Positions 28,985 through 54,685 of a stretch of DNA of 64,000 nucleotides are shown here, piece by piece. Under the pieces are notes generated by a model, which ran no database searches, was not told the origin of the DNA, and saw nothing but the letters and a program-made list of their open reading frames with translations. The stretch covers positions 32,001 through 96,000 of IMG/VR virus record IMGVR_UViG_3300023179_000013; one strand, written 5' to 3'. Each line of letters begins with the position of its first letter. Positions within the stretch are counted from its first letter, which is position 1. The stretch comes from a virus. The position numbers and the translations under genes were made by a program.

Positions 28985-30652
28985 ATGAACATTCAATCAT
29001 TATTAGAGTCATCAAACCAATACAAGGTTATTGCTGATGACGCCAAAAAACTCTCCGCTAAGTGGACCAAATCTGGTCTCTTAGAAGGATTAAAAAGCGA
29101 GAACGATCGCAATACAATGGCGATGTTACTCGAAAACCAAGCTAAGCAGTTAGTAACTGAAGCTTCATCTACTGGTAACCAATCTGGTGGTGCTGGTGCT
29201 TACAACGGTGAAAGCTGGAACGGTGTTGCCCTTCCATTAGTACGCCGTGTATTCGGTGAAATCGCTGCTAAAGAATTCGTTTCTGTACAGCCGATGAACT
29301 TACCTTCTGGTCTCGTATTCTACTTGGACTTCAAGTATGGTACTGGTGTTAAACCATTTGCCTCTGGTGGTTCTTTATATGGAGCTAATGCTTCTACAAA
29401 CGTAACTGATATTGCTTCAGCTTCATTATATGGTGCTGGTAAATTCGGTTATTCTATCAACCAATTCTCATCTTCTATTGCTGCTATCACATCATCTGCT
29501 GGTGGTGCAACTGGTGCTGCTACTTGGTTAGATTTTAACTTAGACGCTGCTTACTCTTCTTCTTTTACTAGCTTTAAAAAGATCCTTGTTCCATTACCTG
29601 CTAACTTCGATGTTAACGGTGTTCGTGCTTTCCAAGTTCTTTCAGGTTCTACTAACATTGACTTACAAGTATTGTCTGCGTTTACAACTGTATCTAACAA
29701 TACTGGTTCCTTTATCGTTACTGGTTCCTTAATTCCAGTTGCTGCTATTGGTGCTGGTGGTACTTTAGGTAATGTAACTTTATTGTATAACGTAGCTCCT
29801 TTAGCAACATCTCGTGGTGACTTTGAAGATGCTAATAACCTTAACTCTCCAGGTACTAACCCAGGTGGTTATCCAAATAACCAATCACAAACTGCAATTG
29901 CTATTCCAGAAGTTAACGTTCAGTTAAAATCTGAAGCAATCGTTGCTAAAACTCGTAAGTTGAAAGCTCAGTGGACTCCAGAATTCGCTCAAGACTTAAA
30001 CGCTTACCATAGCGTAGATGCTGAAGCTGAATTAACTGGTATCTTATCTCAGTACATCTCTATGGAGATTGACCTCGAGTTGTTAGATATGTTAATCCAG
30101 AACGCTTTCACAGTTGATTACTGGTCTGCTACTAACAACACTGCTTACAGTGTTTCTGGTACTACTGTTACTACTTCTGCATTAGCTTTCTATAACACCC
30201 AAGGTGGTTGGTTCCAAACTTTAGGAACTAAACTCCAGAAAGTTTCTAACAAAATTCACCAGTTAACTTTACGTGGTGGTGCTAACTTCTTAGTTTGCTC
30301 TCCAACTGTAGCTACTATCATCGAATCAATCCCAGGATTTGCTTCTGATGGTGATGGTGATAAAATGGAATTCAACTTCGGTATCCAAAAGGTTGGTTCT
30401 CTTAACAGTCGTTACAAGGTTTACAAGAACCCATATATGACTGAGAACGTAATCTTAATGGGTTACAAAGGTGCTCAATTCCTTGAGTGTGGTGCTGTAT
30501 TTGCTCCATACGTTCCGTTAATCATGACTCCACTTCTTTACGATCCAACAACCTTCACTCCACGTAAAGGTTTGATGACTCGTTACGCTAAGAAGATGAT
30601 CCGTCCTGACTACTACGGTAAGATCTATGTTGCTGGTTTAGATACTATCTAA
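28985..30652 (+). CDS. Major capsid protein, copy 1 (T4 gp23-like)
   Basis: LPLVRR, VQPMNLPSGLVFYL, KTRKLKAQWTPEFAQDL, YVPL and GLMTRYA; C-ending codon bias. Confidence 0.95.
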   Translation: MNIQSLLESSNQYKVIADDAKKLSAKWTKSGLLEGLKSENDRNTMAMLLENQAKQLVTEASSTGNQSGGAGAYNGESWNGVALPLVRRVFGEIAAKEFVSVQPMNLPSGLVFYLDFKYGTGVKPFASGGSLYGANASTNVTDIASASLYGAGKFGYSINQFSSSIAAITSSAGGATGAATWLDFNLDAAYSSSFTSFKKILVPLPANFDVNGVRAFQVLSGSTNIDLQVLSAFTTVSNNTGSFIVTGSLIPVAAIGAGGTLGNVTLLYNVAPLATSRGDFEDANNLNSPGTNPGGYPNNQSQTAIAIPEVNVQLKSEAIVAKTRKLKAQWTPEFAQDLNAYHSVDAEAELTGILSQYISMEIDLELLDMLIQNAFTVDYWSATNNTAYSVSGTTVTTSALAFYNTQGGWFQTLGTKLQKVSNKIHQLTLRGGANFLVCSPTVATIIESIPGFASDGDGDKMEFNFGIQKVGSLNSRYKVYKNPYMTENVILMGYKGAQFLECGAVFAPYVPLIMTPLLYDPTTFTPRKGLMTRYAKKMIRPDYYGKIYVAGLDTI

Positions 30653-30668
30653 TCTGGCTTCTAAATAA

Positions 30669-30698
30669 AAACGACCAGGTGTAAAAGCCTGGTCGTTT
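30669..30698 (+). terminator. Stem-loop between the capsid paralogs (attenuator/terminator)
   Basis: AAACGACCAGG-tgtaaaag-CCTGGTCGTTT. Confidence 0.7.
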
Positions 30699-30726
30699 AT
30701 TAAAAAACAATTTAAAACATTCTTAA

Positions 30727-32433
30727 ATGAATATTCAATCTCTGTTAGAGTCATCTAATCAATACAAAGTTATTGCTGATGACGCAAAAAAGCTTACCCA
30801 AAAGTGGGTTAAGTCTGGCCTTTTAGAAGGCATTAAGAGTGAGAATGAGCGTAATACGTTATCCATATTATTGGAAAACCAAGCTAAACAATTAGTAACC
30901 GAAGCATCTTCCACAGGTAACCAAGCTGGTGGTGCAGGTGCTTACAATGGTGAAAGCTGGAACGGTGTAGCTTTACCATTAGTACGTAGAGTATTTGGTG
31001 AGATTGCTGCTAAAGAATTCGTTAGTGTTCAACCAATGAATTTACCTTCTGGTCTTGTGTTTTATTTGGATTTTAAGTACGGTACTAATGATGTGCATTT
31101 TACCCAAAATGCTTCATTATATGGTGCTAACGCTACCACAAACGTAACTGACATTACATCTGAATCTCTTTATGGTCCTGGACAATTTGGTTATTCTATC
31201 AATAACTTCTCAGCTTCTGTTTCAAATGCACTTACAGGTGCTCTTGCCACATGGGCTGACTTTAACTTAAATGCAGATTATTCTGCTTCTGCAGCAGCTA
31301 ATTTGTATAGAAAGTTATTAGTTCCATTACCAGCAAACTCTGACGTAAATGCAGTTCGTTCATTTTTTATTAGTGGTAGTACAATATCTGGTTCAGGAGC
31401 TAATGCTTGGGAAGCTATTGGAAGTTATACTATATCTAATATCTTACAAGAATTTACTACTGTAGCAAATAATACTGCTTCATTCTTATTACCTTCATCT
31501 TCATTTGTTAAGATTGTAGGAACAGCTCCAACCAGTTCTAATGGTGTTCAAACAGCAGTATTGTACTACACAGTACAACCTTTAGCAACATCACGTGGTG
31601 ATTTTGAAGACGCTAGCAACTCTAACTCCCCAGGTACTAATCCTGGTGGTTATCCTAGTAATTTAAGTCAAACCACAATTTCAATTCCTGAAGTTAATGT
31701 TCAGTTAAAATCTGAAGCTATTGTAGCTAAAACTCGTAAGTTGAAAGCACAATGGACACCTGAATTTGCCCAGGATTTGAATGCTTATCATTCAGTAGAC
31801 GCTGAATCTGAATTAACAGGAATTTTATCTCAATACATTTCTATGGAAATTGATCTTGAGTTATTAGACATGTTAATCCAAAACGCCTTTACTGTTGATT
31901 ATTGGTCTGCTACTAACAACACTGCTTATGGTGTTTCTGGTACTACTGTTACTACTACTAACTTAGCCTTTTACAATACTCAAGGTGGTTGGTTCCAAAC
32001 ACTTGGTACCAAATTACAAAAAGTATCAAATAAAATCCATCAGTTAACCTTACGTGGAGGTGCAAACTTCCTTGTATGTTCTCCAACTGTTGCTACAATC
32101 ATCGAATCCATTCCTGGATTTGCTAGTGATGGCACTGGAGAAAAGATGGAATTTAACTTTGGTATTCAAAAAGTAGGTAGCTTAAATAGCCGCTACAAAG
32201 TTTATAAGAACCCGTATATGACCGAAAACGTAATCCTCATGGGTTACAAAGGCAATCAGTTCTTAGAATGTGGTGCTGTGTTTGCTCCTTATGTACCTTT
32301 AATCATGACTCCATTGTTGTACGATCCAACTACCTTTACTCCACGTAAGGGCTTGATGACTCGCTACGCCAAGAAAATGATCCGTCCTGATTATTATGGT
32401 AAAATTTATGTAGCTGGTTTAGATACTATCTAA
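30727..32433 (+). CDS. Major capsid protein paralog, copy 2
   Basis: Near-identical N- and C-terminal regions to copy 1 with a divergent central domain. Confidence 0.93.
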   Translation: MNIQSLLESSNQYKVIADDAKKLTQKWVKSGLLEGIKSENERNTLSILLENQAKQLVTEASSTGNQAGGAGAYNGESWNGVALPLVRRVFGEIAAKEFVSVQPMNLPSGLVFYLDFKYGTNDVHFTQNASLYGANATTNVTDITSESLYGPGQFGYSINNFSASVSNALTGALATWADFNLNADYSASAAANLYRKLLVPLPANSDVNAVRSFFISGSTISGSGANAWEAIGSYTISNILQEFTTVANNTASFLLPSSSFVKIVGTAPTSSNGVQTAVLYYTVQPLATSRGDFEDASNSNSPGTNPGGYPSNLSQTTISIPEVNVQLKSEAIVAKTRKLKAQWTPEFAQDLNAYHSVDAESELTGILSQYISMEIDLELLDMLIQNAFTVDYWSATNNTAYGVSGTTVTTTNLAFYNTQGGWFQTLGTKLQKVSNKIHQLTLRGGANFLVCSPTVATIIESIPGFASDGTGEKMEFNFGIQKVGSLNSRYKVYKNPYMTENVILMGYKGNQFLECGAVFAPYVPLIMTPLLYDPTTFTPRKGLMTRYAKKMIRPDYYGKIYVAGLDTI

Positions 32434-33207: not shown

Positions 33208-33215
33208 ATATTTAT
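33208..33215 (+). promoter_or_regulatory. ATATTTAT putative late promoter
   Basis: Upstream of the neck gene. Confidence 0.65.
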
Positions 33216-33238
33216 ACGTGTTAAATACTAGTTAAATA

Positions 33239-35266
33239 ATGGCAATTAATCTAAGAGACCTATACGATCAGTATAATGGTAACCCAAATAAATTAACACC
33301 AGTAAAGGGTAATACACCATTTGAATATTACACAAATGACCCGGAATTTACCACGGATGCATTAGGTGTTGCTCGTTTCGTAGCACAACGTTTAGGTGTT
33401 ACTGGTCCTCAATATAATTTTGCAACTCAAAAATTTAACTCAAGCGCAGCTACATTAAATATTACTGATTTAACAGTATATGCAGCATTTGAAGAAGCCG
33501 TTACTACTTATGGTAATTTAGTTTACCAATACAAAATTAGAGACCAATATATTAATATGGAAGGATCGGATACATTGCCATTCTTTCATAATATTATTTC
33601 ATATGTTAACAGTAATGATGTACAATCTCCTGTAACTTGGTCTGCAGCTAGATTAGCAACATGGGCTGAAGTAGATTACGATCCTGCCTATTCACAATCA
33701 ATAGTAGATGGTGAAATTTGGGCTATATCTTCATCAATAAAAGATTACATTGCTCCTAACTTTGATTTAATTAAATCATTTAACTTAGCTGATAACTATA
33801 GAAGTTATAATGGTGGAACTACATATACAACATACAATTTAAGTTCATTTGTATATAATCAGTTTAATAATGTAGGTGGAGCTACTGTATTTACTCCTTA
33901 TTACAATCCAAACAGTGGATCATATTCATTTGGTACACAAACAGATGGTTATACTTATGGTGTAACAGGTAGTAATGGGGTACAAGTTCAACTTATTTTA
34001 ACTTCATCTACTACTCAAACAGACACAGCAACTAAACTTTATGTTGTAACAGGTAGTACAACAAGCATAACAGCTTATAATATTGGAAATAAAATAGCAG
34101 GAGCTTCTTTAGGTACATTTGGAACAGCTCTTACAGCTAATACAGGTTCAGGTGCTACAGTAGCTTTTACTTCTTCTATATCTAGCTATGATATTACTAA
34201 TTTTAAAATAAATAACTCATCTTTATTTTCTAATGTAACATCAGGTTCAACTGCTTCAAGACCAACAGGAAAATCTCACGTATATTTTTATACTACAACT
34301 AATACAATAGCAGGAGGATCTCAATTCTTTGTTTCTGCTTCTATAACACAACCTATACCAACAGTATACATTCAATCTAACATTAATCCATCATTAAATA
34401 ATAAACTATTAAGTAATAACTTAACAACTATTACTTCTCGTATTGCTGAAGATTATGCTGCTGAAGCTAATGTTGGTGGATATTATGATGTGAAAACAGG
34501 TTCTCTTGATATGGTGGCAGGTCAACAAAATTATAATTTAAATGAATGGGCTGCTGCTTCTGCTTCATTAAGTGAAGGTGATTCAATAGAAATTAGAAGA
34601 ATATTCTATCAGTCCCCACCAGCCATTGTTCGTTATTTTGACCCATATGCTGGTACAGGTACAGGTATCCAATCATTGCTTGAAACATTTGGATTTGGTC
34701 AGTTTTCTCCTGGTATTAATTTCTTATTAATGCCAATTTACTTTGACGTTCAAAAAGTACAAGCAATTGAATTAAACGACCAGATAAGAAAAGCGGATTA
34801 TTCATTTGATTTAAGAAATAATCAATTGAAAATATTCCCTATCCCTAATGAAGATAAAAAATTATATTTTGAGTACATTACTATGAGTGATAAAAACCAA
34901 CTAGTAAGAGATACTAGAAAAAATGTGGTTACTGATATAATGAACGTACCTTATAGAAACCCAATTTATTCTAATATTAATACAGTTGGTAGAACTTGGA
35001 TTTATAAATATACTTTAGCATTGTGCCGTGAAATTGAAGCTCACATTCGTATTCAATATGCAAACTTGAGTATTCAAGGTATTGGACCACTTCAAGGATC
35101 AGAATTAATTACAGATGCTAGAACTGAGAAAGAAAATTTATTAACCGAATTAAAGGAAATGTTAAATGAAGTATCACGTAAAGGTCAATTGGAACGTAAG
35201 CAACAAGAGGCTCAATTTACTCGCGATACATTATCGAATGTTCCTTTAAACATATATATAATGTAA
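33239..35266 (+). CDS. Neck/head-tail adaptor (gp13-like) with Ser/Thr-rich insertion
   Basis: Position after capsid genes; AFEEAVTTY, WIYKYTLAL and ELITDARTEKE. Confidence 0.7.
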   Translation: MAINLRDLYDQYNGNPNKLTPVKGNTPFEYYTNDPEFTTDALGVARFVAQRLGVTGPQYNFATQKFNSSAATLNITDLTVYAAFEEAVTTYGNLVYQYKIRDQYINMEGSDTLPFFHNIISYVNSNDVQSPVTWSAARLATWAEVDYDPAYSQSIVDGEIWAISSSIKDYIAPNFDLIKSFNLADNYRSYNGGTTYTTYNLSSFVYNQFNNVGGATVFTPYYNPNSGSYSFGTQTDGYTYGVTGSNGVQVQLILTSSTTQTDTATKLYVVTGSTTSITAYNIGNKIAGASLGTFGTALTANTGSGATVAFTSSISSYDITNFKINNSSLFSNVTSGSTASRPTGKSHVYFYTTTNTIAGGSQFFVSASITQPIPTVYIQSNINPSLNNKLLSNNLTTITSRIAEDYAAEANVGGYYDVKTGSLDMVAGQQNYNLNEWAAASASLSEGDSIEIRRIFYQSPPAIVRYFDPYAGTGTGIQSLLETFGFGQFSPGINFLLMPIYFDVQKVQAIELNDQIRKADYSFDLRNNQLKIFPIPNEDKKLYFEYITMSDKNQLVRDTRKNVVTDIMNVPYRNPIYSNINTVGRTWIYKYTLALCREIEAHIRIQYANLSIQGIGPLQGSELITDARTEKENLLTELKEMLNEVSRKGQLERKQQEAQFTRDTLSNVPLNIYIM

Positions 35267-37842: not shown

Positions 37843-38052
37843 ATGGCGCGAATTAGGTTAGAACAATTAAGGGCAAATCTATACTATGATACAGGATCAA
37901 ATGTGTTGTCTGTATCTGGTTCACTTAATATTACCCAAACATCTCCTTCTTATCCTGCCTTAACCAATTCTGGTTCATTTTACGTAGTAGACTCCCCTAA
38001 TGTAGCAAGTGGTTCATATAATGGAAATGCAATTGACGGAGGAACATACTAA
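37843..38052 (+). CDS. Small virion/fibre-associated protein
   Basis: MARIRLEQL N-terminus; IDGGTY C-terminus. Confidence 0.65.
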   Translation: MARIRLEQLRANLYYDTGSNVLSVSGSLNITQTSPSYPALTNSGSFYVVDSPNVASGSYNGNAIDGGTY

Positions 38053-38055: not shown

Positions 38056-38063
38056 ATATTTAT
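38056..38063 (+). promoter_or_regulatory. ATATTTAT putative late promoter
   Basis: Upstream of the giant fibre gene. Confidence 0.65.
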
Positions 38064-38122
38064 ACACGGCTTACATAAGCCAAAGCATCAGAGGTATATA
38101 CCGTTTAAATTGATCCATACAT

Positions 38123-41100
38123 ATGGCTGTTAATATTGAATTGAAACGTAGTGCGGTCCCTGGTAAGGTGCCTACCACTAGTTCCCTAAATTTAGGTGAA
38201 ATTGCCATCAACACTTATGATGGTAAAGTATATTTCAAAAAAGACAATGGAACTGCATCCATTGTAGAATTAGCAGCACTTGCCTCTGGTTCTTTACCTC
38301 CAACATCATCATACTCTATTAGCTCATCGTATGCTGTAACAGCATCATACGCTGTTACTTCAACATCGGCTAGCTATGCATTATCATCAAGCTATTCTTT
38401 TAATGCTACTAGTGCATCTTACTCATTAACAGCTACAAGTGCATCATATGCTACTAGTGCATCATACTCTAACACATCATCATATGCCGCTACAGCTACT
38501 AGTGCATCATATTCATTAACAGCTACAAGTGCATCATATGCGGCTACAGCATCATCAGCAGATGATTTTACTGTTAGAGGTACTTTAACGGCTCAAACAA
38601 TTATAGCTCAGTATATTACATCATCTACTGAATATATAACTGGATCAACAAAATTCGGTTCTCAATTATCAAATACACACCAGTTTACTGGATCAGTATC
38701 AATAACTGGTAGTTTAGCTATAAACGGTGTTGATTATGCATCAACATCTGCATCATTTAATACTAGAATTACAAACAATAGTGCTAGTATTGCTGCATTA
38801 TCTGCTTCATTCAATGGATTTAGTGGATCATTTAATACTGGTTCATTTACAGGATCGTTTAATGGTCAATTTATAGGATCATTTAGTGGTTCATTAAACA
38901 ACTTACAAGGCGCACCAACATACATTCCATTCTTTAGCTCATCTCAAGTATTAGCTAATAGTTCAATGTATCAAGTTGGTACATCTAGTATTGCTATTAA
39001 CCAAACAAACATTACAACAGCCAATCCAGAGGCATTGTATGTTTCTCAAACACATCCAACTTCAATAAATGTAATTAGTGGTAAAGGTAACTTAAACAAC
39101 TACTTACAATTAAATATATTTAACACCAATCAAGGAGCTTCAGCTTCATCAGATATAGTTGCTACAGCCAATAATGGTAATGAAACTACCAACTATATTG
39201 ATATGGGTATCAATAGTGAATTGTACAATCAAAACTTTATTGGTGCTGCAAATGATGCTTACCTATATTCTACAGGTAATGATTTGCATATTGGTAATGC
39301 CACATCAAATAAAGCGCTACAATTCTTTGTAGGAGGAACTGATGTTGATGTATATAATAAGCTTCAACTTAATTCTGATAACAGACATAATATGTCTGGT
39401 TCATTAGATGTGAGTGGAAGTATTAAAGCACAAAGCTTTACAGGCTCATTACTTGGAACAGCATCATATGCTGCTAACGCTAATACCGCTTCTTATGCAT
39501 TGAATGCTTCGAATGCTGTTAGCTCATCATTTGCTAGTACAGCATCTTATGTACTACAAGCAGTATCTGCTTCGTTTGCAACACAAGCAGCAAATGCAAC
39601 AAGTGCTTCATTTGCTACTACTGCTTCATATGTACTTCAAGCAGTATCTGCTTCTTATTGGAGTGGTAGCATATTAAATGCAACTAGTGCTTCATTTGCT
39701 TCTACAGCATCGTTTGTAGCAAATGCTCAAACAGCTTCGTTTGTTCAAAATGCTGTTAGTGCATCGTTTGCTTTAACAGCATCCTATGCTAGCAATGTTC
39801 CTGCAACCGCATCTTATGCTTTACAAGCATTAAGTTCATCTTATGCCTTAACAGCATCATATGCTATGAATGGTGGTAGTGGTACTTCATTCCCTTATAC
39901 AGGTAGTGCTATTATAACCGGAAGTTTAGTTGTAACAGGATCTACTACATCAACAGGTGGATTTACAGGATCATTATTAGGAACATCTTCGTTTGCTAAT
40001 AATGCTACTTCAGCATCATATGCTACTACTGCATCTTATGTTTTAAATGCAGTAAGTAGTTCATTTGCCTCAACAGCATCGTTTGTAGCTAATGCTCAAA
40101 CGGCATCATATGTACTTCAAGCAGTATCTGCTTCATTTGCTACTAGTGCTTCACTAGCTCAAACAGCAAGTTACGTATTAAATGCTGTAAGTTCATCATT
40201 TGCAGCTACTGCCTCTAGAGTTAATCAACTTAACCAAGCAGTAGTAATATCTGGGTCTTTAACAGTAACAGGTTCAACTAACTTTGTAGGAGATACAGGC
40301 ACAACACTATTTTCAGCTAATGCTGATACTTTAACATTTACAGGTTCAATCTATACAAGTGGCTCTATTGTTTCAACTGGTAGTTTAAATATTACTAGTA
40401 TAACTAGCTCCTTACTTGGAACTGCATCTTATGCTACTCAAGCATTAACAGCATCAAATGCTAATACTGCTTCTTATATTTTAAATGCAGTAAGTAGTTC
40501 GTTTGCCTCTACTGCTTCGTTTGTAGCTAATGCACAAACTGCTTCTTATGTTTTACAAGCAGTAAGTTCATCATTTGCAACAAGTGCTTCATATGCATTA
40601 AGCTCATCTCAAGCTCAAAATGCTACAAGTGCTTCATTTGCAATAACATCTGTAACAGCATCATACGCTAATAATCTTACAGTAGCAGGTACTTTAACTG
40701 CTCAAACAATTGTAGCACAATATATAACTTCATCTACAGAATACATTACAGGATCTACTCAATTTGGAAGTATTATAACTAATACTCACCAATTTACCGG
40801 TTCAGTAAGTGTAAGTGGATCTTTAGCTGTAAACGGATCAAATGTAATCTTAACAAATCAGACATCGTCAATGTCTGTTGCTACTGCTTCATTTGTTCAA
40901 AATGCAGTTAGCTCATCTTTTGCATCAACAGCATCGTTTGTAGCTAATGCTCAAACAGCATCATATGTCTTACAAGCAGTATCTGCCTCATTTGCTACAT
41001 CTGCTTCTCAAGCTCAAAATGCTACTACAGCATCTTATATACTAAATGCTGTAAGTTCATCATTTGCTAGCACAGCATCATTTGTTCAAAATGCACAAAC

Positions 41101-44100: not shown

Positions 44101-45988
44101 TGCAGTAAGTGCTTCATTTGCTAGTACTGCCTCATATGTTAATCCGCTTGTACAAAACGTATTAGTAACAGGCTCTCTTACAGTTACAGGAAGTGCATTA
44201 GCTAGCAATCTATATTCCGGTTATACTTTATATATTTCAAGAACAGACCAAGGAGGAATTCCCAACTCAAATTCAGGCTATATAAGATATGGAACTAATA
44301 ATGATTTTCGATTTTATACTCATACAAACGCATTTGCTCCATTAGTAGTTGCAGATGTTGGAGGAGGTTATGATGGATTCTCTAGAGTATTTTTTCCAAG
44401 TTATGGTAATATAGTTATAGGAACTAGTGCAAATAAACCAAATACAACAATATATGGTAATGTAAGTATAGACTCAAATACATTTCCCGGCTATAAACTT
44501 TATGTTTCTGGATCAGGTACTTCTGGCTCACTTAACATAGATGATACACTATATATTAATTCAAGTAGAAATGTATTAATAGGTACTACTACAGACGCTG
44601 GTTATAAGTTAGATGTAAATGGTACTTCTCGTTTTACAAATAACATGCTCGTAACAGGCTCTGTTACAGCAACTTCATTTACCGGTTCTTTAAGCGGTAG
44701 TGCAACTAGCGCTACTAGTGCATCATTTGCATCTACTGCATCATTTGTAACAACAGCACAAACAGCATCATATGTTTTAAATGCAGTATCTGCTTCATTT
44801 GCAACATCTGCAACTACTGCTCAAACAGCATCATATGTTTTAAATGCTATATCTGCTTCATTCGCATCAACAGCATCTAGTGTTAATACATTAAACCAAA
44901 ATGTAATAATAACAGGTAGCTTAACAGTAGGAGCTACTTCAGTTGGAGCAAATGAAAATACATTAATATTAGGACCAGCTCCAGCAGGTGGCGCAGGTGA
45001 AGGTGGACAGTTATTATTACAAGCTAAAGGAGATAGTGGATATACCTCAGCTTCAATGCTTGATAACTGGCAAAACTATACTAGATTATTAAGAGGTAGT
45101 AATCAAAGTAGTGATGCAGTGGTAACTCAATGGAATATGCATACCAAACAGGTATCATTTCCAGCATATAATAGTGTATCAGCATTTGCAGGAACGGCAG
45201 TAGCTAACTTAGCAGTTGATTCGGGTGGTAATATTCTTACAGTATCAACATCAGGAGGAAGTGTTTTTCCTTATACTGGAGTTGCATCTATAAATGGTGG
45301 ATTAATAGTAACCGGTTCTATAACTGCATCTAGTGCTATTCACGCTCAAGCAAATGGTGCAATGTATTTTAGAGGTGGTGATGATGCTGAGTTATGGGAT
45401 ATAAACGTTGCAAATACAGTTGGTGTTTACGGACAACAAGATCAAACAGTAGGCTCTATCAAATTAGGTAGTGGTGGTGGAACAATTTCAGGTAAAAGTG
45501 GAAATATTGGTATTGGTACTATAAATCCAACCTCAGCTTCATTACAAGTAAATGGTAATGTATTTGCTACTTCATTTACTGGTTCATTACTTGGAACAGC
45601 ATCGTTTGCTACTACATCTACAAGTGCTTCATTTGCAGCAACAGCATCGTTTGCGTCTAGTGGATTTACAGTTGGTATATCTCAATTCCAAACAGCAACA
45701 GTAGCATCATCGATTGCCGGTGCAAATAACTTATTTACTACACCAACAGGTTCCTTCACAGGCGCTAAATACTTATATACCGTAACAAGCGGTTCAAACG
45801 CTAGAATGGGTGAAATATTTGCAGTATGGAGTGGTGGTAGTGTTCAATATACTGATATTTCAACATTAGATATTGGAACTACAACAACTGTTACAGCATC
45901 AGTTTCAATAGTAACAGCACAAGCACAATTGAACTTCCAAACCAATACTAGTGGATGGACAATTAAATCACAAGCAACATTTATTTAA
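38123..45988 (+). CDS. Giant repetitive tail fibre/adhesin (2621 aa)
   Basis: Mtd/hyaluronidase-type N-terminus (LKRS...LGEIAINTYDGKVY); many TASY/SASF repeats. Confidence 0.8.
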   Translation: MAVNIELKRSAVPGKVPTTSSLNLGEIAINTYDGKVYFKKDNGTASIVELAALASGSLPPTSSYSISSSYAVTASYAVTSTSASYALSSSYSFNATSASYSLTATSASYATSASYSNTSSYAATATSASYSLTATSASYAATASSADDFTVRGTLTAQTIIAQYITSSTEYITGSTKFGSQLSNTHQFTGSVSITGSLAINGVDYASTSASFNTRITNNSASIAALSASFNGFSGSFNTGSFTGSFNGQFIGSFSGSLNNLQGAPTYIPFFSSSQVLANSSMYQVGTSSIAINQTNITTANPEALYVSQTHPTSINVISGKGNLNNYLQLNIFNTNQGASASSDIVATANNGNETTNYIDMGINSELYNQNFIGAANDAYLYSTGNDLHIGNATSNKALQFFVGGTDVDVYNKLQLNSDNRHNMSGSLDVSGSIKAQSFTGSLLGTASYAANANTASYALNASNAVSSSFASTASYVLQAVSASFATQAANATSASFATTASYVLQAVSASYWSGSILNATSASFASTASFVANAQTASFVQNAVSASFALTASYASNVPATASYALQALSSSYALTASYAMNGGSGTSFPYTGSAIITGSLVVTGSTTSTGGFTGSLLGTSSFANNATSASYATTASYVLNAVSSSFASTASFVANAQTASYVLQAVSASFATSASLAQTASYVLNAVSSSFAATASRVNQLNQAVVISGSLTVTGSTNFVGDTGTTLFSANADTLTFTGSIYTSGSIVSTGSLNITSITSSLLGTASYATQALTASNANTASYILNAVSSSFASTASFVANAQTASYVLQAVSSSFATSASYALSSSQAQNATSASFAITSVTASYANNLTVAGTLTAQTIVAQYITSSTEYITGSTQFGSIITNTHQFTGSVSVSGSLAVNGSNVILTNQTSSMSVATASFVQNAVSSSFASTASFVANAQTASYVLQAVSASFATSASQAQNATTASYILNAVSSSFASTASFVQNAQTASYVLNAVSASYASNADLLDGKDSTIFATTGSNTFIGNQTVTGSLIQTGSYYHVGDSIHTGSVYHSGSKFLNGVFSQTGSLSITGSTTQIGNNTLVGNTILSGSIIISGSNTTPPTPTVKVYGDMETNGVIKFLPVVKSIDTSISASYIYVSGSTSDLYFSQNGSGYTNNVRLRWIEGNLYTGLLGGGVLSSTPGSTTFNLSSGSGIVVTLNASTGSADPYPTVQYLNWPTYTSQPIINSGSAKITYVSVKSDGTINQQVVPIGSTDITQYDTQIEIGVVLHLSDSVSTGVYNAPQVAYGQAQRTDDFIRAFGPIKISGHTLQPSGSTLGLIKTAGTSYNNGSNYVVNPNHPSTVSDPAITTSKIYRYYVSGSTPIIDTGVAAAGYTVIDPSKYNNNGVLSSVAGGQYTIQRVFWIPNSPTNAFLVYYGNAVYNSAANAQAAIDTEPFTEAPNTAANAILVAYIIVLGNETNLTNATFVQGGLFRSIAGIGNSNTSPVSNTLAGLSDVSIASRTSGDLLYYNGSQWVNSKSLTGNYSITGSFATNDGITAVTVTATSFTGSLSGSATSASFASTASYVLQAVSASFASTASYVANAQTSSYVLNAVSSSYAATASVAPLYVLTSATSSMLAPYVLTSQTSSMSVLSSSFAATSSYANNFTVAGILTAQTIVVQTITSSTDYVTGSSRFGSTLSNTHQFTGSVSITGSLTSPNITGSLFGTASWANNAITASYVLNAVSSSFASTASFVANAQTASYVLNAVSSSFASTASFVANAQTASYVLQAISASFASTASYVNPLNQTVQITGSIQVTGSKSTFINTAANDTVAEFVAGGSTGIRFSSATVGSSAAVFIRPQDGLIQGQNYSYFTITGASAKLKLSTDNSANPIEMQGGNVLLNTTTDAGFRLDVNGTSRFQNNMLVTGSVTATSFTGSLSGSATSATSASYAATASFVTTAQTASYVLNAVSSSFASTASFVQNAVSASFATSATSAQTASYVLNAVSASFASTASYVNPLVQNVLVTGSLTVTGSALASNLYSGYTLYISRTDQGGIPNSNSGYIRYGTNNDFRFYTHTNAFAPLVVADVGGGYDGFSRVFFPSYGNIVIGTSANKPNTTIYGNVSIDSNTFPGYKLYVSGSGTSGSLNIDDTLYINSSRNVLIGTTTDAGYKLDVNGTSRFTNNMLVTGSVTATSFTGSLSGSATSATSASFASTASFVTTAQTASYVLNAVSASFATSATTAQTASYVLNAISASFASTASSVNTLNQNVIITGSLTVGATSVGANENTLILGPAPAGGAGEGGQLLLQAKGDSGYTSASMLDNWQNYTRLLRGSNQSSDAVVTQWNMHTKQVSFPAYNSVSAFAGTAVANLAVDSGGNILTVSTSGGSVFPYTGVASINGGLIVTGSITASSAIHAQANGAMYFRGGDDAELWDINVANTVGVYGQQDQTVGSIKLGSGGGTISGKSGNIGIGTINPTSASLQVNGNVFATSFTGSLLGTASFATTSTSASFAATASFASSGFTVGISQFQTATVASSIAGANNLFTTPTGSFTGAKYLYTVTSGSNARMGEIFAVWSGGSVQYTDISTLDIGTTTTVTASVSIVTAQAQLNFQTNTSGWTIKSQATFI
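43285..43440 (+). repeat. Exact 72-bp tandem repeat (about 2.2 copies)
   Basis: aacagcatcata recurs at 43285, 43357 and 43429; unit encodes TASYVLNAVSSSFASTASFVANAQ. Confidence 0.9.
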
Positions 45989-46187: not shown

Positions 46188-46844
46188 ATGGCTTTTGCAA
46201 ATGGTGGTTCTATAGTAACAAATGGTTTAGTGTTATCACTAGATGCTGCTGATAGGAATAGCTATGTGTCTGGGTCTACTACGTGGAGTGATTTAACTGG
46301 AAATGGAAATAATGGAACATTAACGAATGGACCAACATTTAATACTGGGAGTGGAGGTGCTATTGTGTTTGATGGAAGTAATGATTATTGTATAACAAAT
46401 TATACAAATAATCCTACCTACTTTACTTTTGAGTGTACTTTAAAAGTTAATGATCCTAGCTCAACAAAAGTATTTGTAGGGAAATACAACGGAGCAGGAG
46501 ATGCATATTGGATGGGAGTCTATACCGGTGGGCAGCAATTTATATTTAGCGTAAATAGTGGAGTTTTAAACAGTGGAGTTACTGTTTCAACTTCTCAAAT
46601 ATATACAGTAAGTTGTATAGTAGGTTCTGTAAATCAAGAAATATATGTAAATGGAGCAATAAAAAATTCTACAGGTACAACTACAACTAGCCCTGGAGGA
46701 GGATTAGTTTTAGCAGCCTTTGGAAGTAATTTAGGATTTTACTCCAATATAAACATATACAATTTTAGATTCTATAATCGCGCTCTTAGCGCAACAGAAA
46801 TTGCCCAAAACTACAACGCAACCAAAACCCGATTCGGACTATAA
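46188..46844 (+). CDS. LamG/concanavalin-A-like protein 1
   Basis: GLVLSLDAA...TWSDLTG, FDGSND, IYVNG and YNRALSATEIAQNYNA. Confidence 0.8.
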   Translation: MAFANGGSIVTNGLVLSLDAADRNSYVSGSTTWSDLTGNGNNGTLTNGPTFNTGSGGAIVFDGSNDYCITNYTNNPTYFTFECTLKVNDPSSTKVFVGKYNGAGDAYWMGVYTGGQQFIFSVNSGVLNSGVTVSTSQIYTVSCIVGSVNQEIYVNGAIKNSTGTTTTSPGGGLVLAAFGSNLGFYSNINIYNFRFYNRALSATEIAQNYNATKTRFGL

Positions 46845-48522: not shown

Positions 48523-48810
48523 ATGAAAGCAATCCAACCAGTAAACATTTGGGCAGGTGGCCAAAACGTACAAGCTAACAATTTAGACATGTATATTATC
48601 AATGATAATTTATCATCATCTGCTACATTCTACTATCAGTTATTAAATGTAACAACTGATGGTGAAGGTAATGTAACATCATCTCAACAATTAGCACAAG
48701 GCAATTTAACAATCAGTGGAACTGATTATGAAAATTGGGGTGATGCTGGTAATATTAATGATGCTGCTTATGTATGGGCTGCTGGTCAATTGAATTTAAC
48801 TTTAGTTTAA
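48523..48810 (+). CDS. Small hypothetical protein, possible fibre chaperone or tip protein
   Basis: 95-aa ORF with own ATATTTAT motif. Confidence 0.65.
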   Translation: MKAIQPVNIWAGGQNVQANNLDMYIINDNLSSSATFYYQLLNVTTDGEGNVTSSQQLAQGNLTISGTDYENWGDAGNINDAAYVWAAGQLNLTLV

Positions 48811-48854: not shown

Positions 48855-51626
48855 ATGCCAAATGAATTCGTTGCCAGGAATGGCATAATTGCGCTTAATA
48901 ATTCATCAATAACAGGTTCTTTAGGTGTATCCGGTGGTATCACTGGATCTCTACTTGGTACTGCCTCATGGGCATCAAATGCCGTTACATCATCTTATGT
49001 ACTAAATGCAGTAAGTGCTTCATTTGCTAGTACAGCATCATTTGTTAATCCGCTTTTACAAAATGTATTAATAGGAACAACAACAGATGCTGGTTATAAA
49101 TTAGATGTAAATGGTACAACTAGAATACAAGGAGCAATAACATTAAATAATGGACAAGGAAATGCTCTTATACAACAGGTTGGAACTCAGGTTTATTTTC
49201 CTAATGCAAATGGAATTGCCGGTTATGGATTTTCTTCTCCAAGTAATGGAGTACAAACGTTTAAAGATAACTATGTTTTAGGAACAGCATTAACATCATC
49301 TGCAGCAAATGATGGTGTTCAAACAGGATATAGTTTTGATACACTTTATTCCTTAATATCAGGAAATAAAATAGCTAAATTTACTACGACAGGTTCGTTA
49401 AAAGCATATATAGATTATGATGGAAGTATTTGGTCTAGTGGTTCTGGTACTTTTATAAAGGGATTATCAGTAACTGGATCTTTAAATGCTCCTTCAATAA
49501 CTGGTTCACTTCAAGGAACAGCTTCATGGGCAAACAATGTAATAAGTGCTTCATTTGCTACAACAGCATCAAATGCTTTAACAGCATCTTATATATTAAG
49601 TGCTGTATCTGCTTCATTTGCCTCTACAGCATCATCCGTTAATACATTAAACCAAGCTGTAGCAATATCTGGTTCCTTCACAATAGTAACAGGCAGCGGA
49701 GTAGAATTCCAAGTAACAAACACAGGAACTAAGATCGGTAACATAGCAACCGACACTCACACCATCACAGGCTCAATGTACCAATCAGGCTCTACAGTAG
49801 CCCTCTCACTCCGCGGCTCAGGCTCAGGTGTGTTTACAGTTGATGGAACATCAGGTCGTCTCTTCTCAGTAGACGATTCACTTTCAGGTTCACTCTTCAG
49901 TGTAAACACAGCAGCAGGTTTACCTATTATAGAAGCATTCTCTGATAATACTGTTCGTATTGGACAATACGGACAAAGAGTATTATATGTTTCCCAATCT
50001 AGAGTTGGTGTTGGTAAAGAAACAGGATTAAATGGTGTATTGGATGTTAGTGGAAGTGTTACTGTAACAGGTTCACTTAATGTAAGCGGTTCAATTACAG
50101 GTTCGCTTTTAGGAACAGCATCCTTAGCAACAACAGCATCAAATGCTTTAACAGCATCTTATGTGTTGAATGCCGTAAGTGCTTCATTTGCCTCAACTGC
50201 TAGCTTCTGGAGTGGCAGCGTAACAAACGCTACTAGTGCCTCATTTGCAACCACATCATCATACGCTAATAATTTTACAGTAGCAGGTACTATAACAGCA
50301 CAAACGCTTGTAGTACAAGAAATAACATCATCAAGAGACTTTGTAACTGGTTCTACACGCTTCGGAAGTTTATTATCAAACACTCATCAGTTTACTGGTA
50401 GTGTAAGTATGACTGGTAGTTTAACAACAAACGGAAATACTATAGTATCGGGTTCTTTAACAGTAGCAACATCATCTAATCAGGGAGGTGTTCAACTTTA
50501 TAGTAATTCATCAGTGGGAGGAGGAATTAGATTTTCTCATACAAACGGTAGTGTTATAGGTAGAATAGAATTAAATGCTGGTGGTGGAACAACTGGTTTA
50601 GATTTATATGCTTATGATTATTTTAATTTTAAAACACTTAATACAGCTATAAACTTCATAACAACAACCGCAACTAACTGGTACACATATAGTGGAAATA
50701 AATTTAACTTTGTAGGATATACAGGGTTTGGTGGTGAGGTTATAATGAAAAACAACCTAGATGGTACTGAAGTTTTTCATGCATATTTAGCTGATACATA
50801 TAAAGTAGCTTTCCCAACAGGAAGTGTTAGTATAGGTAAACCAGCAGCAACTACTCCAAATGCAACATTAGATGTTAGTGGATCAGTTACCATAACAGGC
50901 TCTCTCACAGTTATCACAGGCAGTGCAATTGAACTCCAAGTTACTAATACTGGTGTTAAAATCGGTAATGCTATTACAGATACTCACACAGTAACAGGTT
51001 CTATTAATATTAGTGGTAGTGTAACTGCAACTAACTTTACAGGTTCCTTATTCGGAACTGCAAGTTGGGCAACAACAGCAACAAGAGTTATAGGTGGTAC
51101 TAAAGATTATGTTGCTGTATGGGATACTGGTGGTGTGTTAACAACAGGATCCGTTTTTAATCCTAGTGCTACTGGTAATGTTGGTATAAACAACTTATCA
51201 CCATCATATAAAGTACATATTAGTGGTAGTACTGCTATATATGGGGGTGGATTAATAGTATCAGGTACCTTAGCAACATCAGGTAGTGGTTCTCAAGGTT
51301 TAGTAGCACCACTTAAATTTACTACACCTACATTAGGATCTAGTTATACTTTAGTGTATACAGACGAAGGAAAAATAGTTGAAATGAATAATAATGCGGA
51401 TGCTCCATTAACATTAACAATCCCATTAAACTCAAGCGTTGGTTTTCCTATTGGTACAGAAATTTCTATTATACAAATAGGTTCGGGTACAACTATAATT
51501 ACAGGAAGTGCTGGCGTAACAATAAATAGTTCAGGGGGATTAAAAACTCTTCAAAATCAATATGATGTTGCCTCTATTGTAAAACGTGGTACTGATAGCT
51601 GGTATTTATTTGGTAACTTAGGTTAA
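48855..51626 (+). CDS. Second tail fibre-like protein (923 aa)
   Basis: Shares TASY repeats, THQFTGS and TTDAGYKLDVNG modules with 38123..45988. Confidence 0.78.
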   Translation: MPNEFVARNGIIALNNSSITGSLGVSGGITGSLLGTASWASNAVTSSYVLNAVSASFASTASFVNPLLQNVLIGTTTDAGYKLDVNGTTRIQGAITLNNGQGNALIQQVGTQVYFPNANGIAGYGFSSPSNGVQTFKDNYVLGTALTSSAANDGVQTGYSFDTLYSLISGNKIAKFTTTGSLKAYIDYDGSIWSSGSGTFIKGLSVTGSLNAPSITGSLQGTASWANNVISASFATTASNALTASYILSAVSASFASTASSVNTLNQAVAISGSFTIVTGSGVEFQVTNTGTKIGNIATDTHTITGSMYQSGSTVALSLRGSGSGVFTVDGTSGRLFSVDDSLSGSLFSVNTAAGLPIIEAFSDNTVRIGQYGQRVLYVSQSRVGVGKETGLNGVLDVSGSVTVTGSLNVSGSITGSLLGTASLATTASNALTASYVLNAVSASFASTASFWSGSVTNATSASFATTSSYANNFTVAGTITAQTLVVQEITSSRDFVTGSTRFGSLLSNTHQFTGSVSMTGSLTTNGNTIVSGSLTVATSSNQGGVQLYSNSSVGGGIRFSHTNGSVIGRIELNAGGGTTGLDLYAYDYFNFKTLNTAINFITTTATNWYTYSGNKFNFVGYTGFGGEVIMKNNLDGTEVFHAYLADTYKVAFPTGSVSIGKPAATTPNATLDVSGSVTITGSLTVITGSAIELQVTNTGVKIGNAITDTHTVTGSINISGSVTATNFTGSLFGTASWATTATRVIGGTKDYVAVWDTGGVLTTGSVFNPSATGNVGINNLSPSYKVHISGSTAIYGGGLIVSGTLATSGSGSQGLVAPLKFTTPTLGSSYTLVYTDEGKIVEMNNNADAPLTLTIPLNSSVGFPIGTEISIIQIGSGTTIITGSAGVTINSSGGLKTLQNQYDVASIVKRGTDSWYLFGNLG

Positions 51627-51635
51627 TAAAATATT

Positions 51636-52061
51636 ATGATTTTAACTAGAATGGGAGTTGTAGCTGCTTCAAAATCATCAGGAAGTGCCCCTCCAGTATA
51701 TTATACTATAGCAATTAGTGGTTCATATGATTTTGATGGAAGACCAAACAATGTTGATCTGTATTGGGATAGTGGAAGTGGATATAACTATGTAGCTACT
51801 GTTACTTCTATTAAGCAAACATGTAACGGTATTGCTACATTAACAGTATTATCTGGTAGTGCTGCTGGACTTATTAAATTTGTAGACCCAGGAAATTGTG
51901 ATGTTGCTATTAAGTATATTTTAAACGACCCAGTATGTGCTAATTATGATAGTGAGGGTTGTGAAATTGATTTAGGTACACCATCAAGTGATACTACTCA
52001 TGCTGTTGTAATAAAATTACAAAACAACGATCCATTTCCTGCAACTTTTATTTGTTGTTAA
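51636..52061 (+). CDS. Cys-containing fibre-tip/accessory protein
   Basis: MILTRMGVVAAS start; six Cys; ends CC. Confidence 0.6.
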   Translation: MILTRMGVVAASKSSGSAPPVYYTIAISGSYDFDGRPNNVDLYWDSGSGYNYVATVTSIKQTCNGIATLTVLSGSAAGLIKFVDPGNCDVAIKYILNDPVCANYDSEGCEIDLGTPSSDTTHAVVIKLQNNDPFPATFICC

Positions 52062-52090
52062 AAAACTTGGTTGTCTCCTAAATTTGGTAT

Positions 52091-52098
52091 ATATTTAT
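52091..52098 (+). promoter_or_regulatory. ATATTTAT motif, also fitting a host-type promoter
   Basis: CTTG at 52066, 20-nt spacer, then TAtaTTTA at 52090. Confidence 0.65.
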
Positions 52099-52113
52099 AT
52101 CAAATATAAAAAC

Positions 52114-52353: not shown

Positions 52354-52579
52354 GATTGTTGAAATAGCTAAAGCATGGATTGCTGCAGCTAACCCAACTC
52401 CTGAACAACAAGCTATAGCTGAATATCGTGCTGCTGTGTGTGATGAATGTCCACATAAAAATCACGTAAATGCTATTAATACTTTTGTTTGTGGAAAATG
52501 TGGTTGCCCATTAAACAAAAAAATATTTAGTCCATTACCTGGCGAACAGGCATGTCCTGATCAACGTTGGAAAAAATAA
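52346..52579 (+). CDS. Small Zn-finger-like protein
   Basis: ATG at 52346; CDECP...CGKCGC...CPDQRW. Confidence 0.7.
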   Translation: MLKIVEIAKAWIAAANPTPEQQAIAEYRAAVCDECPHKNHVNAINTFVCGKCGCPLNKKIFSPLPGEQACPDQRWKK

Positions 52580-52593
52580 AATAAACAAATAAT

Positions 52594-52866
52594 ATGTCAG
52601 AAGTAAAACAATTAACTCCTGAAGAGTTACAACAAATTAAAGATATGCAACAACAATACAACAAGTTTGTATTTGAACTTGGTAGCGTTGAAGCACAATT
52701 GCAAAATGTTATTGCCACTAAAGAATTAATTGAAACCGAAAAATCTAATGTTTTAGAAGACATTAAAAAATTAGGTGAGCGCGAAAAAGAAATTATTAAT
52801 ACACTTCAAGCAAAATACGGCGCTGGATCAATTAACCCAGAAACGGGCGAAATTACTCCGCTTTAA
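52594..52866 (+). CDS. Small coiled-coil protein
   Basis: Helical hairpin ending LQAKYGAGSINPETGEI. Confidence 0.7.
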   Translation: MSEVKQLTPEELQQIKDMQQQYNKFVFELGSVEAQLQNVIATKELIETEKSNVLEDIKKLGEREKEIINTLQAKYGAGSINPETGEITPL

Positions 52867-52900
52867 TCGAGAGACTTCTGCGTTTTGTGTGTTTTTGTAA

Positions 52901-52908
52901 ATATTTAT
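52901..52908 (+). promoter_or_regulatory. ATATTTAT putative late promoter
   Basis: Upstream of the sheath gene. Confidence 0.65.
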
Positions 52909-52951
52909 CGTTAGGTAATCCCTAATTATAAATTAAACAATTACAAATAAA

Positions 52952-54685
52952 ATGGCAGAAGTAATTCTTTCCCCTGGTGTATTTCAGATTGAGTCTGATC
53001 AAAGTTTATACACCCAAGCCCCACCAGCACTTGGCGCAGCTATTGTAGGACCTACAGTAAAAGGTCGCCCATTCGTACCAACGTACGTTACTACTTATAC
53101 ACAATATTTGTCACTTTTTGGTGATGTGTTTAAAAGTGGTAGCTACTATTACGAATATTTCACGTCACAAGCTGCTCGTGAATATTTCCAAAATGGTGGT
53201 CAATCATTATTAGTAACCAGAATTATTAGTGGTTCAGCTAACATTAGTACTTATGCTCAAGCTAACGTTACTTCTGGTAGTGTAACTCAACTTGTTTTAG
53301 AAACATTAGCTTGGGGTGATCAAATGAATAATACCTCTAGTTTAAGTAAAGGCGCTTTAGCTAGTGGTTCTCAATACAATGTTCGTTGGGAAGTAACTAA
53401 TGTAAACACCGGATCTAATGGTGGTACATTTACACTTATAATTCGTCGTGGTGATGATAATGATGCTCAAAAGAATATTTTAGAAACATGGGCTAACATG
53501 AGTTTAGACCCACAATTACCAAACTATGTTTCTCGTGTAATTGGTGATTTAAAACCAGTAGCTGATTTAACTAATGGATATGTAAATTTTACAGGTAGCT
53601 TTGCAAATGCTTCTCAGTATGTTCGTGTTGCTTCTGTAACTACTCCAAACGTAGACTCTATTGATAATAATGGTAATTTTAAAACCGGCTCTTTTGCTTC
53701 TACATTACCTTCAGTAGGTAGTGGTTCATTTGGTGGTTCATTTGCTGGTGGTGTAGCTGATACTACTTTTGCAAAGCAAATGAATGAAAATATAGGAAAC
53801 GGTTCCTCTCCAAGTAATACAAATAATATTCAAGGTTTTTCACCTGCTGATTACAACAATGCCTTTACTTTATTAGCAAATAAAGATGAATATCGCTATA
53901 ACATTTTAATGGCTCCTGGAATTGGATTAGATTGTTCAGCTGCTTCAACTATGATTTCAACAGTTGAAGGTCGTGGTGATGCAATTGCTATTTTAGGTGC
54001 TGGTGTTTATGGTACTTCAATAACAGCTGCTGTAACAAATGCTTCTGGCCAATCCAGCAACTACGGTGCTGCTTATTATCCTTGGGTTCAAGTATACAGC
54101 TCAGGTTTAGGAAAAGCTGTTTGGGTTCCACCTTCTACAGTAATTGGTGGTGTATTAGCATTCAACGACCAAGTAGGTGCTGAATGGTTTGCCCCAGCAG
54201 GTTTAAATCGTGGTGGTATTCCATCAGTAATTAGAGCTGAGCGTCGTTTACAACAAACAGATCGCGATACATTATATACAGGTAATGTTAACCCATTAGC
54301 TACCTTCCCTGGAACAGGTGTTGTAGTATGGGGTCAGAAAACATTACAACGCAAACCAACATCTCTCGACCGCGTAAACGTTCGTCGTTTGTTGATTGCA
54401 TTGAAAGATTATATTGGTGGTGTTGCTCGCAACTTAGTATTCGAACAAAATACAACCGTTACTCGTAACCGCTTCTTAAGCCAAGTAAACCCATATCTTG
54501 AATCAGTAGTTCAACGTCAAGGTTTATATGCTTATAAAGTAATAATGGATGATACTAATAATACTCCTGATGTAATCGACAGAAATCAGTTAGTAGGTCA
54601 GATTTATATCCAACCAACTAAGACTGCTGAGTTTATTATCTTGAACTTTAACTTAACTCCAACCGGTGCTACATTCCCTGCATAA
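52952..54685 (+). CDS. Contractile tail sheath protein (gp18-like)
   Basis: SPGVF, YYPWV, WFAPAGLNRG, WGQKTL, RVNVRRL and PTKTAEFI. Confidence 0.95.
   Translation: MAEVILSPGVFQIESDQSLYTQAPPALGAAIVGPTVKGRPFVPTYVTTYTQYLSLFGDVFKSGSYYYEYFTSQAAREYFQNGGQSLLVTRIISGSANISTYAQANVTSGSVTQLVLETLAWGDQMNNTSSLSKGALASGSQYNVRWEVTNVNTGSNGGTFTLIIRRGDDNDAQKNILETWANMSLDPQLPNYVSRVIGDLKPVADLTNGYVNFTGSFANASQYVRVASVTTPNVDSIDNNGNFKTGSFASTLPSVGSGSFGGSFAGGVADTTFAKQMNENIGNGSSPSNTNNIQGFSPADYNNAFTLLANKDEYRYNILMAPGIGLDCSAASTMISTVEGRGDAIAILGAGVYGTSITAAVTNASGQSSNYGAAYYPWVQVYSSGLGKAVWVPPSTVIGGVLAFNDQVGAEWFAPAGLNRGGIPSVIRAERRLQQTDRDTLYTGNVNPLATFPGTGVVVWGQKTLQRKPTSLDRVNVRRLLIALKDYIGGVARNLVFEQNTTVTRNRFLSQVNPYLESVVQRQGLYAYKVIMDDTNNTPDVIDRNQLVGQIYIQPTKTAEFIILNFNLTPTGATFPA

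Follow-up and report, generated by a model that had tools for sequence, protein, structure and literature searches.

We found that the outward-facing virion proteins of a T4-like phage carry an ordered tripeptide, [ST]-[GA]-S, more often than their composition predicts. We tentatively propose that this tripeptide is a selectively maintained tag on outward-facing virion domains, and that its serine may be O-glycosylated in the cytoplasm of the host by soluble enzymes that the phage itself encodes. The DNA analyzed, here called the window, is a stretch of 64,000 nucleotides comprising bases 32001-96000 of the 168,946-bp phage genome in IMG/VR record IMGVR_UViG_3300023179_000013. The genome has direct terminal repeats at its ends, and all genes in the window are on the + strand. 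The phage is an aquatic T4-like myophage, as established by two capsid paralogs of the Gp23 family, a gp13-like neck protein, a sheath, a gp19-like tube and baseplate wedge proteins. Its nearest cultured relative is Flavobacterium phage vB_FspM_immuto (immuto below), which is syntenic and has a capsid protein that is 58% identical. Microcystis phage Mel-JY01, the uncultured phage LR756508 and Rhodothermus phage RM378 are more distant. The host probably belongs to the phylum Bacteroidota.

An earlier note on this DNA had counted the tripeptide [ST]-[GAS]-S by hand in the virion proteins. Our recount reproduced all of its numbers exactly (Table 1), and the motifs lie where the note had placed them. 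In both capsid paralogs, the PF07068 match runs across the shell domains and every motif falls between two matched stretches, in the variable insertion domain (residues 145, 162, 169, 191, 220, 240 and 246 of paralog 1; residues 162-269 of paralog 2). The motifs of the neck protein are in a large central extension (residues 164-441). Those of the sheath are in the N-terminal half (residues 62-257, with SGS at 93, 138 and 257), and the conserved core of that protein (residues 365-575, aligning to T4 gp18 441-651) has none. Six further motif-rich proteins, with 4-34 motifs each versus 0.4-6.8 expected, are encoded upstream of the window (genome 20743-31003), in a cluster of fibre and outer-baseplate proteins that is as motif-rich as the set in the window. 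In contrast, terminase (18502), portal (20128), scaffold (27672) and PhoH have no motifs, and the tape measure has two. The motif is limited to outward-facing virion proteins, is missing from internal parts of the virion and is rare in non-virion proteins.

The excess is not an artefact of composition. It outlasted shuffles of whole proteins, shuffles within blocks and controls in which the order of the three residues was permuted. Among all structural proteins, SGS occurs 57 times versus 6 for SSG and 5 for GSS, and TGS occurs 71 times versus 9-21 for its five permutations. Likewise, there are 48 SAS versus 9 and 11, and 65 TAS versus 14-34. With the two fibres removed, SGS is found 20 times versus 2 and 2, and TGS 12 times versus 1-6. 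Shuffling within blocks of 10 residues, which controls for local composition, gave 16.1 +/- 3.6 motifs in six non-fibre proteins pooled (maximum 30 in 2000 shuffles), versus 43 observed; single capsid paralogs were only marginal under these block shuffles (p 0.02-0.07). The motif as originally written holds for glycine or alanine in the middle and fails for serine, since SSS is at expectation (22 versus 19.8). The effective motif is [ST]-[GA]-S. Codons are diverse at all three positions, indicating that the signal acts on the protein and not on the DNA and ruling out a DNA-level repeat or a codon artefact.

The bias is specific in its residues as well as in its order. In the non-fibre virion proteins, [ST]GS is enriched 5.7x and [ST]GT 1.7x, versus 0.96x for [ST]G[ND], 0.82x for [ND]G[ST] and 1.2x for [ND]G[ND]. 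What is favored is therefore a small residue flanked by hydroxyl residues, with a strong leaning to serine in the third position. A generic beta-turn signature (polar-Gly-polar) was ruled out, as Asn or Asp beside Gly is not enriched and [STND]G[STND] is at 1.12x in T4. We found no preference for Asp at position -1 of the motif. The proteins that share the motif have no detectable homology to each other. BLAST found no similarity among the capsid insertion domain, the neck, the sheath and the small proteins, and we rejected a shared mobile domain as the source of the motif. One short stretch, ATW-x-[DE]-x-[ND]-x-D-x-A-Y-S-x-S, is common to the capsid insertion domain (28985-30652, residues 178-193) and the neck protein (33239-35266, residues 139-155); elsewhere the capsid and neck profiles show no relationship (hhalign probability 4%).

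The same folds in T4 do not have this bias. In T4 virion proteins [ST]G[ST] is at 0.77x; gp23 has 0, gp18 has 4 versus 1.9 expected, and the fibres are at expectation. Taken together, the T4 capsid, vertex, Hoc, sheath, short and long fibre and baseplate proteins are at or under expectation (SGS 5, SSG 8, GSS 3, TGS 2). Immuto has the same hydroxyl-Gly-hydroxyl specificity ([ST]GS 2.8x, [ST]GT 2.4x, N/D variants ~1x), with a weaker bias than here and with Thr tolerated at the third position. The bias in Mel-JY01 is intermediate. We found no excess in RM378, its capsid protein included, and none in the capsid protein of LR756508. A scaffold-like protein of LR756508 (L171:18218-19897) has 9 motifs versus 1.6 expected, and the neighboring capsid protein has 1. 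Given a lineage-wide bias that is specific for order and for serine, that occurs in non-homologous outward proteins and that is missing from the same T4 folds, the simplest explanation is a trans-acting reader of the motif. Among candidates for such a reader, those that stand out are the phage's glycosyltransferases, which are soluble, belong to the core of the lineage and are probably late.

A search of the genome for glycosyltransferases, which the earlier note had proposed, found a 25-kb glycan-synthesis island with three GT1-type transferases and one GT2-type transferase. The island (genome about 125.7-151.4 kb) is outside the window, ~30 kb past its end, and is not adjacent to the structural genes. 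The GT1-type transferases have 485, 436 and 408 amino acids. Two of them score above the PF00534 cut-off of 26.4 bits (485 amino acids, 45.3 bits; 408 amino acids, 28.3 bits), and the third is just under it (24.1). The GT2-type transferase (PF00535) has 208 amino acids. The island also encodes a dTDP-glucose-dehydratase-like enzyme, two RmlC-type epimerases and one other epimerase, a DegT-type aminotransferase, a UDP-galactopyranose mutase, a B12-radical-SAM enzyme, one or more methyltransferases, a split thiamine-dependent E1-like enzyme, a PfkB kinase, a small nucleotidyltransferase and a HAD phosphatase. Nine island proteins have no family, and PHROG annotation gave nothing useful for them. 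No transmembrane segment was found in any island protein, so the pathway is soluble, and no polytopic membrane protein was found in the genome. The UDP-galactopyranose mutase (genome 148499-149587, L004:8499-9587) is 68-71% identical to proteins of freshwater Cytophagales (Aquirufa, Spirosoma, Sandaracinomonas). This hints at the identity of the host or at a recent host-derived gene; several of the matching contigs from metagenome-assembled genomes are 3-6 kb and possibly mis-binned phage DNA.

The first transferase gene of the island belongs to the core of the lineage. The 485-amino-acid GT4 transferase has an ortholog in every relative tested, with identities of 76, 70, 59, about 45 and 35% that track those of the capsid protein. 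Among 50,697 phage records it was found only in the 7 with the closest capsid proteins. It forms a small, distinct family, with 287 clusters at E<=1e-30 in a set of 1.84 billion proteins, and among structures in the PDB a chlorovirus glycosyltransferase (3oy2, E 1.7e-6) matches it best. To judge from this distribution, the leading GT4 transferase is a vertically inherited core gene and not a variable accessory. Immuto has the same leading genes (glycosyltransferase, glycosyltransferase, unknown, GT2; the two leading transferases are its gp90 and gp91), followed by a different, shorter set of sugar genes, as if the initiating core were conserved and the glycan itself variable. Within the clade all relatives have the transferase, which leaves no absence to correlate with the motif; the outgroups are mixed.

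Promoter-like boxes connect the island to the virion genes. The 9-mer ATATTTATA has 24 copies on the + strand of the whole genome and 1 on the - strand, and 23 of the 24 are 8-67 nt upstream of a start codon. The genes that it precedes include the terminase, neck, giant fibre, baseplate and head-cargo genes, plus two genes inside the island. Four copies of the extended box TATTTATATCAAA are in the structural module and two are in the glycan island (genome 125717, 134751). Small early genes and genes of the replication region have a different, two-part box, [GT]CAAA[AG]-N6-16-TATATTTA (genome 2088-11060, 111401-117684). The T4-type late promoter TATAAATA is not used here; its 11 copies are mostly inside genes. 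Taking the boxes as promoters and their timing as late, we infer from them that the island is probably coexpressed with the virion genes late in infection. Three LamG-like proteins are encoded in the window at 46188, 46844 and 47520; a fourth paralog, far from the structural module (genome 114097-114831), also bears the late-type box.

Table 1. Motif-bearing proteins, the tail tube and promoter-like boxes in the window. Observed motifs are listed beside the number expected from composition shuffles.
Feature	Position in window	Strand	Motifs observed	Motifs expected	Remarks
Major capsid protein paralog 1 (T4 Gp23 family)	28985..30652	+	7	2.4	PF07068 E 5.8e-77
Major capsid protein paralog 2	30727..32433	+	7	2.7	80% identical to paralog 1; PF07068 E 4.2e-78
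Neck protein, C-terminus gp13-like (head-tail adaptor Ad2)	33239..35266	+	12	2.4	PHROG 211 E 1e-5, residues 518-643
69-amino-acid protein	37843..38052	+	4	0.7	motifs are [ST]GS; no known family
Giant fibre	38123..45988	+	182	53.7	2621 amino acids
95-amino-acid protein	48523..48810	+	2	0.2	
Second fibre	48855..51626	+	54	12.5	923 amino acids
141-amino-acid protein	51636..52061	+	4	0.6	motifs are SGS; no known family
Tail sheath	52952..54685	+	9	2.2	
Tail tube protein	54736..55221	+	0		internal part, negative control
Promoter-like box ATATTTATA upstream of neck gene	33208..33216	+			
Promoter-like box ATATTTATA upstream of giant fibre gene	38056..38064	+			
Box ATATTTATA, window positions	1178, 9596, 18482, 22025, 32507, 33208, 38056, 48499, 52091, 55281, 56335, 58654				
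Extended box TATTTATATCAAA	52091..52103	+			six genome copies

We compared sites among relatives by aligning proteins from IMG/VR: 82 capsid proteins (56-80% identical), 15 neck proteins and 81 sheaths. The mean number of motifs per protein was 5.5 for the capsid, 9.9 for the neck and 8.9 for the sheath, versus 2.0, 2.2 and 2.4 expected. These motifs start in 63, 32 and 41 distinct columns, respectively, versus 61-76, 20-28 and 35-44 for permuted patterns. Sites private to one to three sequences are not in excess. Rather, the enrichment is carried by 8-9 clade-conserved columns per protein, often with variable flanks; 9 columns of the neck and 8 of the sheath are kept in at least 50% of the sequences. 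Capsid column 382, for example, is found as TFI-SGS-TAD, RLL-SGS-VDV and IIT-SGS-IGV. At the conserved columns, Gly swaps with Ala and Ser, never with Asn and with Asp only twice, and first-position Ser swaps with Thr. The degenerate pattern itself persists, which argues against a positive-phi glycine turn. The earlier note had described a motif that saturates the virion surface through convergent selection on exposed loops. That description did not survive: overall, motif columns across 78-80 relatives match the permuted controls, and each protein has a small number of fixed sites. These sites fit conserved modification sites or conserved structural elements alike.

If the tag is read by the phage's own transferases, as we tentatively propose, the following sequence of events would account for it. 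Late in infection, the 25-kb island would produce unusual nucleotide sugars. Its conserved leading genes (two GT4-type transferases, then the GT2) would begin and lengthen a glycan on serines. The target serines would lie where strands end in the capsid-insertion, neck, sheath and fibre domains, already folded or still assembling, and a particle decorated with glycans would result. The glycan coat suggested by the earlier note keeps a real, ordered, protein-level motif, a soluble transferase island and a shared box; it loses saturation and convergent selection on loops. In its fullest form, the proposal is of a phage-made glycan coat throughout a clade of aquatic T4-like phages with Bacteroidota-type hosts, in which the conserved, soluble GT4 pair puts the first sugar on the [ST]-[GA]-S serine at strand ends of every outward domain and the variable island diversifies the glycan. 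This fuller form is possible but somewhat unlikely.

Several observations weigh against glycosylation at the motif. That the enzymes act on proteins, and that they act on this motif, are both things we infer from sequence. The flanks of the motif are hydrophobic and strand-like (V/I/L/F at -1 and -2, F/L/Y at +3). In the capsid insertion domain, 5 of the 6 mapped sites are at strand or helix termini, within the one part that reaches some confidence in an otherwise low-confidence AlphaFold2 model (mean predicted local distance difference test score, pLDDT, 49.8); the model of the neck (mean pLDDT 40.2), like that of the capsid, is too poor to judge motif exposure. In both fibres, the motif is the register of a hydrophobic repeat of 6 or 9 residues that has to fold. 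The sites are fixed and there is no surplus of independent gains; structural constraint would look alike. RM378 and LR756508 carry an ortholog of the transferase, yet their capsid proteins have no excess, indicating that the transferase is older than the motif excess. Pelagiphage HTVC008M does not have the 485-amino-acid transferase, yet has a weak, poorly ordered excess in some baseplate proteins. The two-fold deficit of [ST][GA]S in 185 non-virion proteins (16 versus 30.2 expected) might have been read as avoidance of a reader. We dropped that reading, as the ratio is alike in T4 (16 versus 27.5) and bacterial loci are at 1.1. Sugar transfer to DNA in phages can also be late, so late timing leaves DNA glycosylation possible (PMC13326640). 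Finally, soluble GT1 and GT2 enzymes also build lipid-linked glycans of the host, so the island could remodel the host surface with the help of host flippases.

The fixed sites, their position at strand ends and in fibre repeats, and the presence of the enzyme in two relatives without the bias make a purely structural explanation nearly as likely as ours. It is possible that [ST]-[GA]-S ends beta-strands or makes tight connections in accessory beta-rich domains and sets the register of three-chain fibres, that there is no reader, and that the island serves another purpose. The hydrophobic flanks agree with this, as does the best-conserved capsid site, which in outgroups is a small-Gly-polar turn (SGD, AGD, AGA). 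The fibres agree with it as well, with their 6- or 9-residue spacing within a folded-looking repeat. In both fibres, runs free of Gly and Pro are made of [ST][AS]S[YF][AV]xxAx units, 6 or 9 residues long, with TGSxxxTGS blocks among them; in the giant fibre the runs and blocks alternate. Convergent selection on loops, as proposed in the earlier note, does not describe the fibres, where the motif surely has a structural role, whatever else it does. However, a structural idiom does not readily explain why the same folds in T4 are without the bias, why there is no enrichment of turn-forming N or D beside Gly and much less of Thr than of Ser at +2, or why Ala, and not Asn or Asp, replaces Gly. Many proteins of this one lineage have the bias together without being homologous, which points to an external agent common to them and not to many separate folds.

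The repeat region of the giant fibre recurs in the second fibre, with 33.7% identity across 570 amino acids. We found no family match and no PDB sequence match to the repeat region of the giant fibre, and tblastn of the repeat against phages gave no more than one short match, probably owing to low-complexity masking. Between the runs of short repeats, the giant fibre also has three blocks of ~55 residues (TAQTI-AQYITSSTEYITGST-FGS---NTHQFTGSV) at residues ~147-200, 860-915 and 1650-1700.

We consider it unlikely that phage DNA or host surface glycans are what the island acts on and that the island and the motif occur together by chance. Gene clusters in which several glycan enzymes hypermodify the DNA of a phage have been described, and these work late (PMC13326640; see also 10.1101/2023.12.21.572611). 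O-antigen and capsule assembly typically involves soluble GT1 and GT2 enzymes. DNA is nevertheless an unlikely target. The genome had no match to ThyA-type (PF00303), ThyX (PF02511) or C5-methylase (PF00145) families in searches whose positive controls worked, and no DpdA was found; these searches gave no route to a hydroxylated base (5hmC, 5hmU or 5hoC) that could accept a sugar. PF12851 (Tet/JBP) had no match either, but its control also matched nowhere. Moreover, liquid chromatography-mass spectrometry of immuto DNA found only dA, dC, dT and a formyl-preQ1 base, and no glycosylated nucleoside (10.1101/2023.04.13.536721). As to host glycans, we found no gene for a flippase, polymerase or initiating transferase anywhere in the genome, and none of the island proteins is a membrane protein. 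The late-type box on the island of a lytic phage and the status of the transferase as a vertically inherited core gene argue against both targets.

It is quite improbable that the motif is read by some other factor, such as an enzyme for another serine modification (phosphorylation, or glycerol-phosphate via the small cytidylyltransferase-like gene), a phage factor for assembly or decoration, or an enzyme of the host. Any trans-acting reader would agree with how specific the motif is and with its spread through the lineage, and the island has a 133-amino-acid cytidylyltransferase-like protein, the B12-radical-SAM enzyme, methyltransferases and the nine family-less proteins. However, we identified no kinase and no other enzyme that modifies proteins, a decoration protein is not known, and a TibC-type heptosyltransferase (GT9) was sought and not found.

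Phage particles are usually taken to be bare protein. To our knowledge, a few mycobacteriophages are the only exceptions to this that have been shown chemically. If sugars are attached at [ST]-[GA]-S, glycan coats made by the phages' own enzymes would be a feature of an abundant aquatic group, with a bearing on adsorption, stickiness to polysaccharide gels, grazing, decay and the reading of virion proteomes. The motif would be the first defined sequon for phage virion glycosylation, in a cytoplasmic general O-glycosylation system, and glycoengineering would gain a short acceptor tag that is portable, together with a pair of soluble enzymes. Should the motif be purely structural, outer virion domains and fibres would still have a sequence rule that is sharply defined and particular to this lineage, useful for spotting them in metagenomes. 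The proposal can be tested at the bench, as immuto is cultured and has the same bias and the same enzyme pair.

We compared the proposed system to known systems of protein glycosylation. The serine-rich-repeat adhesins of Gram-positive bacteria are glycosylated by GtfA/GtfB, which, as here, are encoded by two adjacent GT-B (GT4, PF00534) genes. GtfA/GtfB O-glycosylates serines of S-x-S type repeats in the cytoplasm, and the SAS/TAS runs of the fibres here are similar. In contrast to the disordered substrates of GtfA/GtfB, the phage repeats are hydrophobic and probably folded. We rejected a pair of the GtfA/GtfB type, as both phage paralogs keep E-x7-E and neither resembles the inactive GtfB. 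No GtfA/GtfB chain was among the PDB matches at E<=1 for the phage transferases. Autotransporter heptosyltransferases (TibC/TibA, Aah/AIDA-I) work in the cytoplasm and O-glycosylate serines that lie where a repetitive beta-structure turns, in a protein of the cell surface. A heptose-type pathway could include the PfkB-type kinase, small nucleotidyltransferase and HAD phosphatase of the island. There was no match to the GT9-fold heptosyltransferase (PF01075) in the genome at E<=0.1, and the control matched in 5 genomes.

General O-glycosylation in Bacteroidota shares with the proposed system its probable host phylum, the O-linkage to Ser or Thr and a three-residue sequon. The sequon itself differs, as the earlier note had said, being D-[ST]-[ALIVMT], and that system is periplasmic and acts on exported proteins, whereas the virion proteins here are cytoplasmic. 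Glycosylation of the chlorovirus capsid (NY-2A B736L, 3oy2) is similar in its use of virus-encoded soluble transferases and sugar-nucleotide enzymes, with no lipid-carrier route of the host. Chlorovirus glycans are N-linked to Asn and the host is eukaryotic, and the similarity of B736L to the 485-amino-acid transferase is weak and limited to the GT-B C-terminal domain.

Freeman et al. in 2023 (Cell Host Microbe 31:1216, as cited in PMC11256854) reportedly described virion glycosylation in the mycobacteriophages Che8 and Rita. In mycobacteriophages the sugars were shown chemically and the host is one of the Actinobacteria, whereas the glycans here are proposed and the host is of the Bacteroidota type. 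The gene set here is far larger (~25 kb), with its own sugar-nucleotide synthesis, and is ~30 kb from the structural genes. A further difference is in the candidate sites, which here are an ordered tripeptide found inside many proteins. The two systems are alike in that the glycosyltransferases are encoded by the phage, in that capsid and tail proteins made in the cytoplasm are the target, as we propose here, and in the glycan coat that would result.

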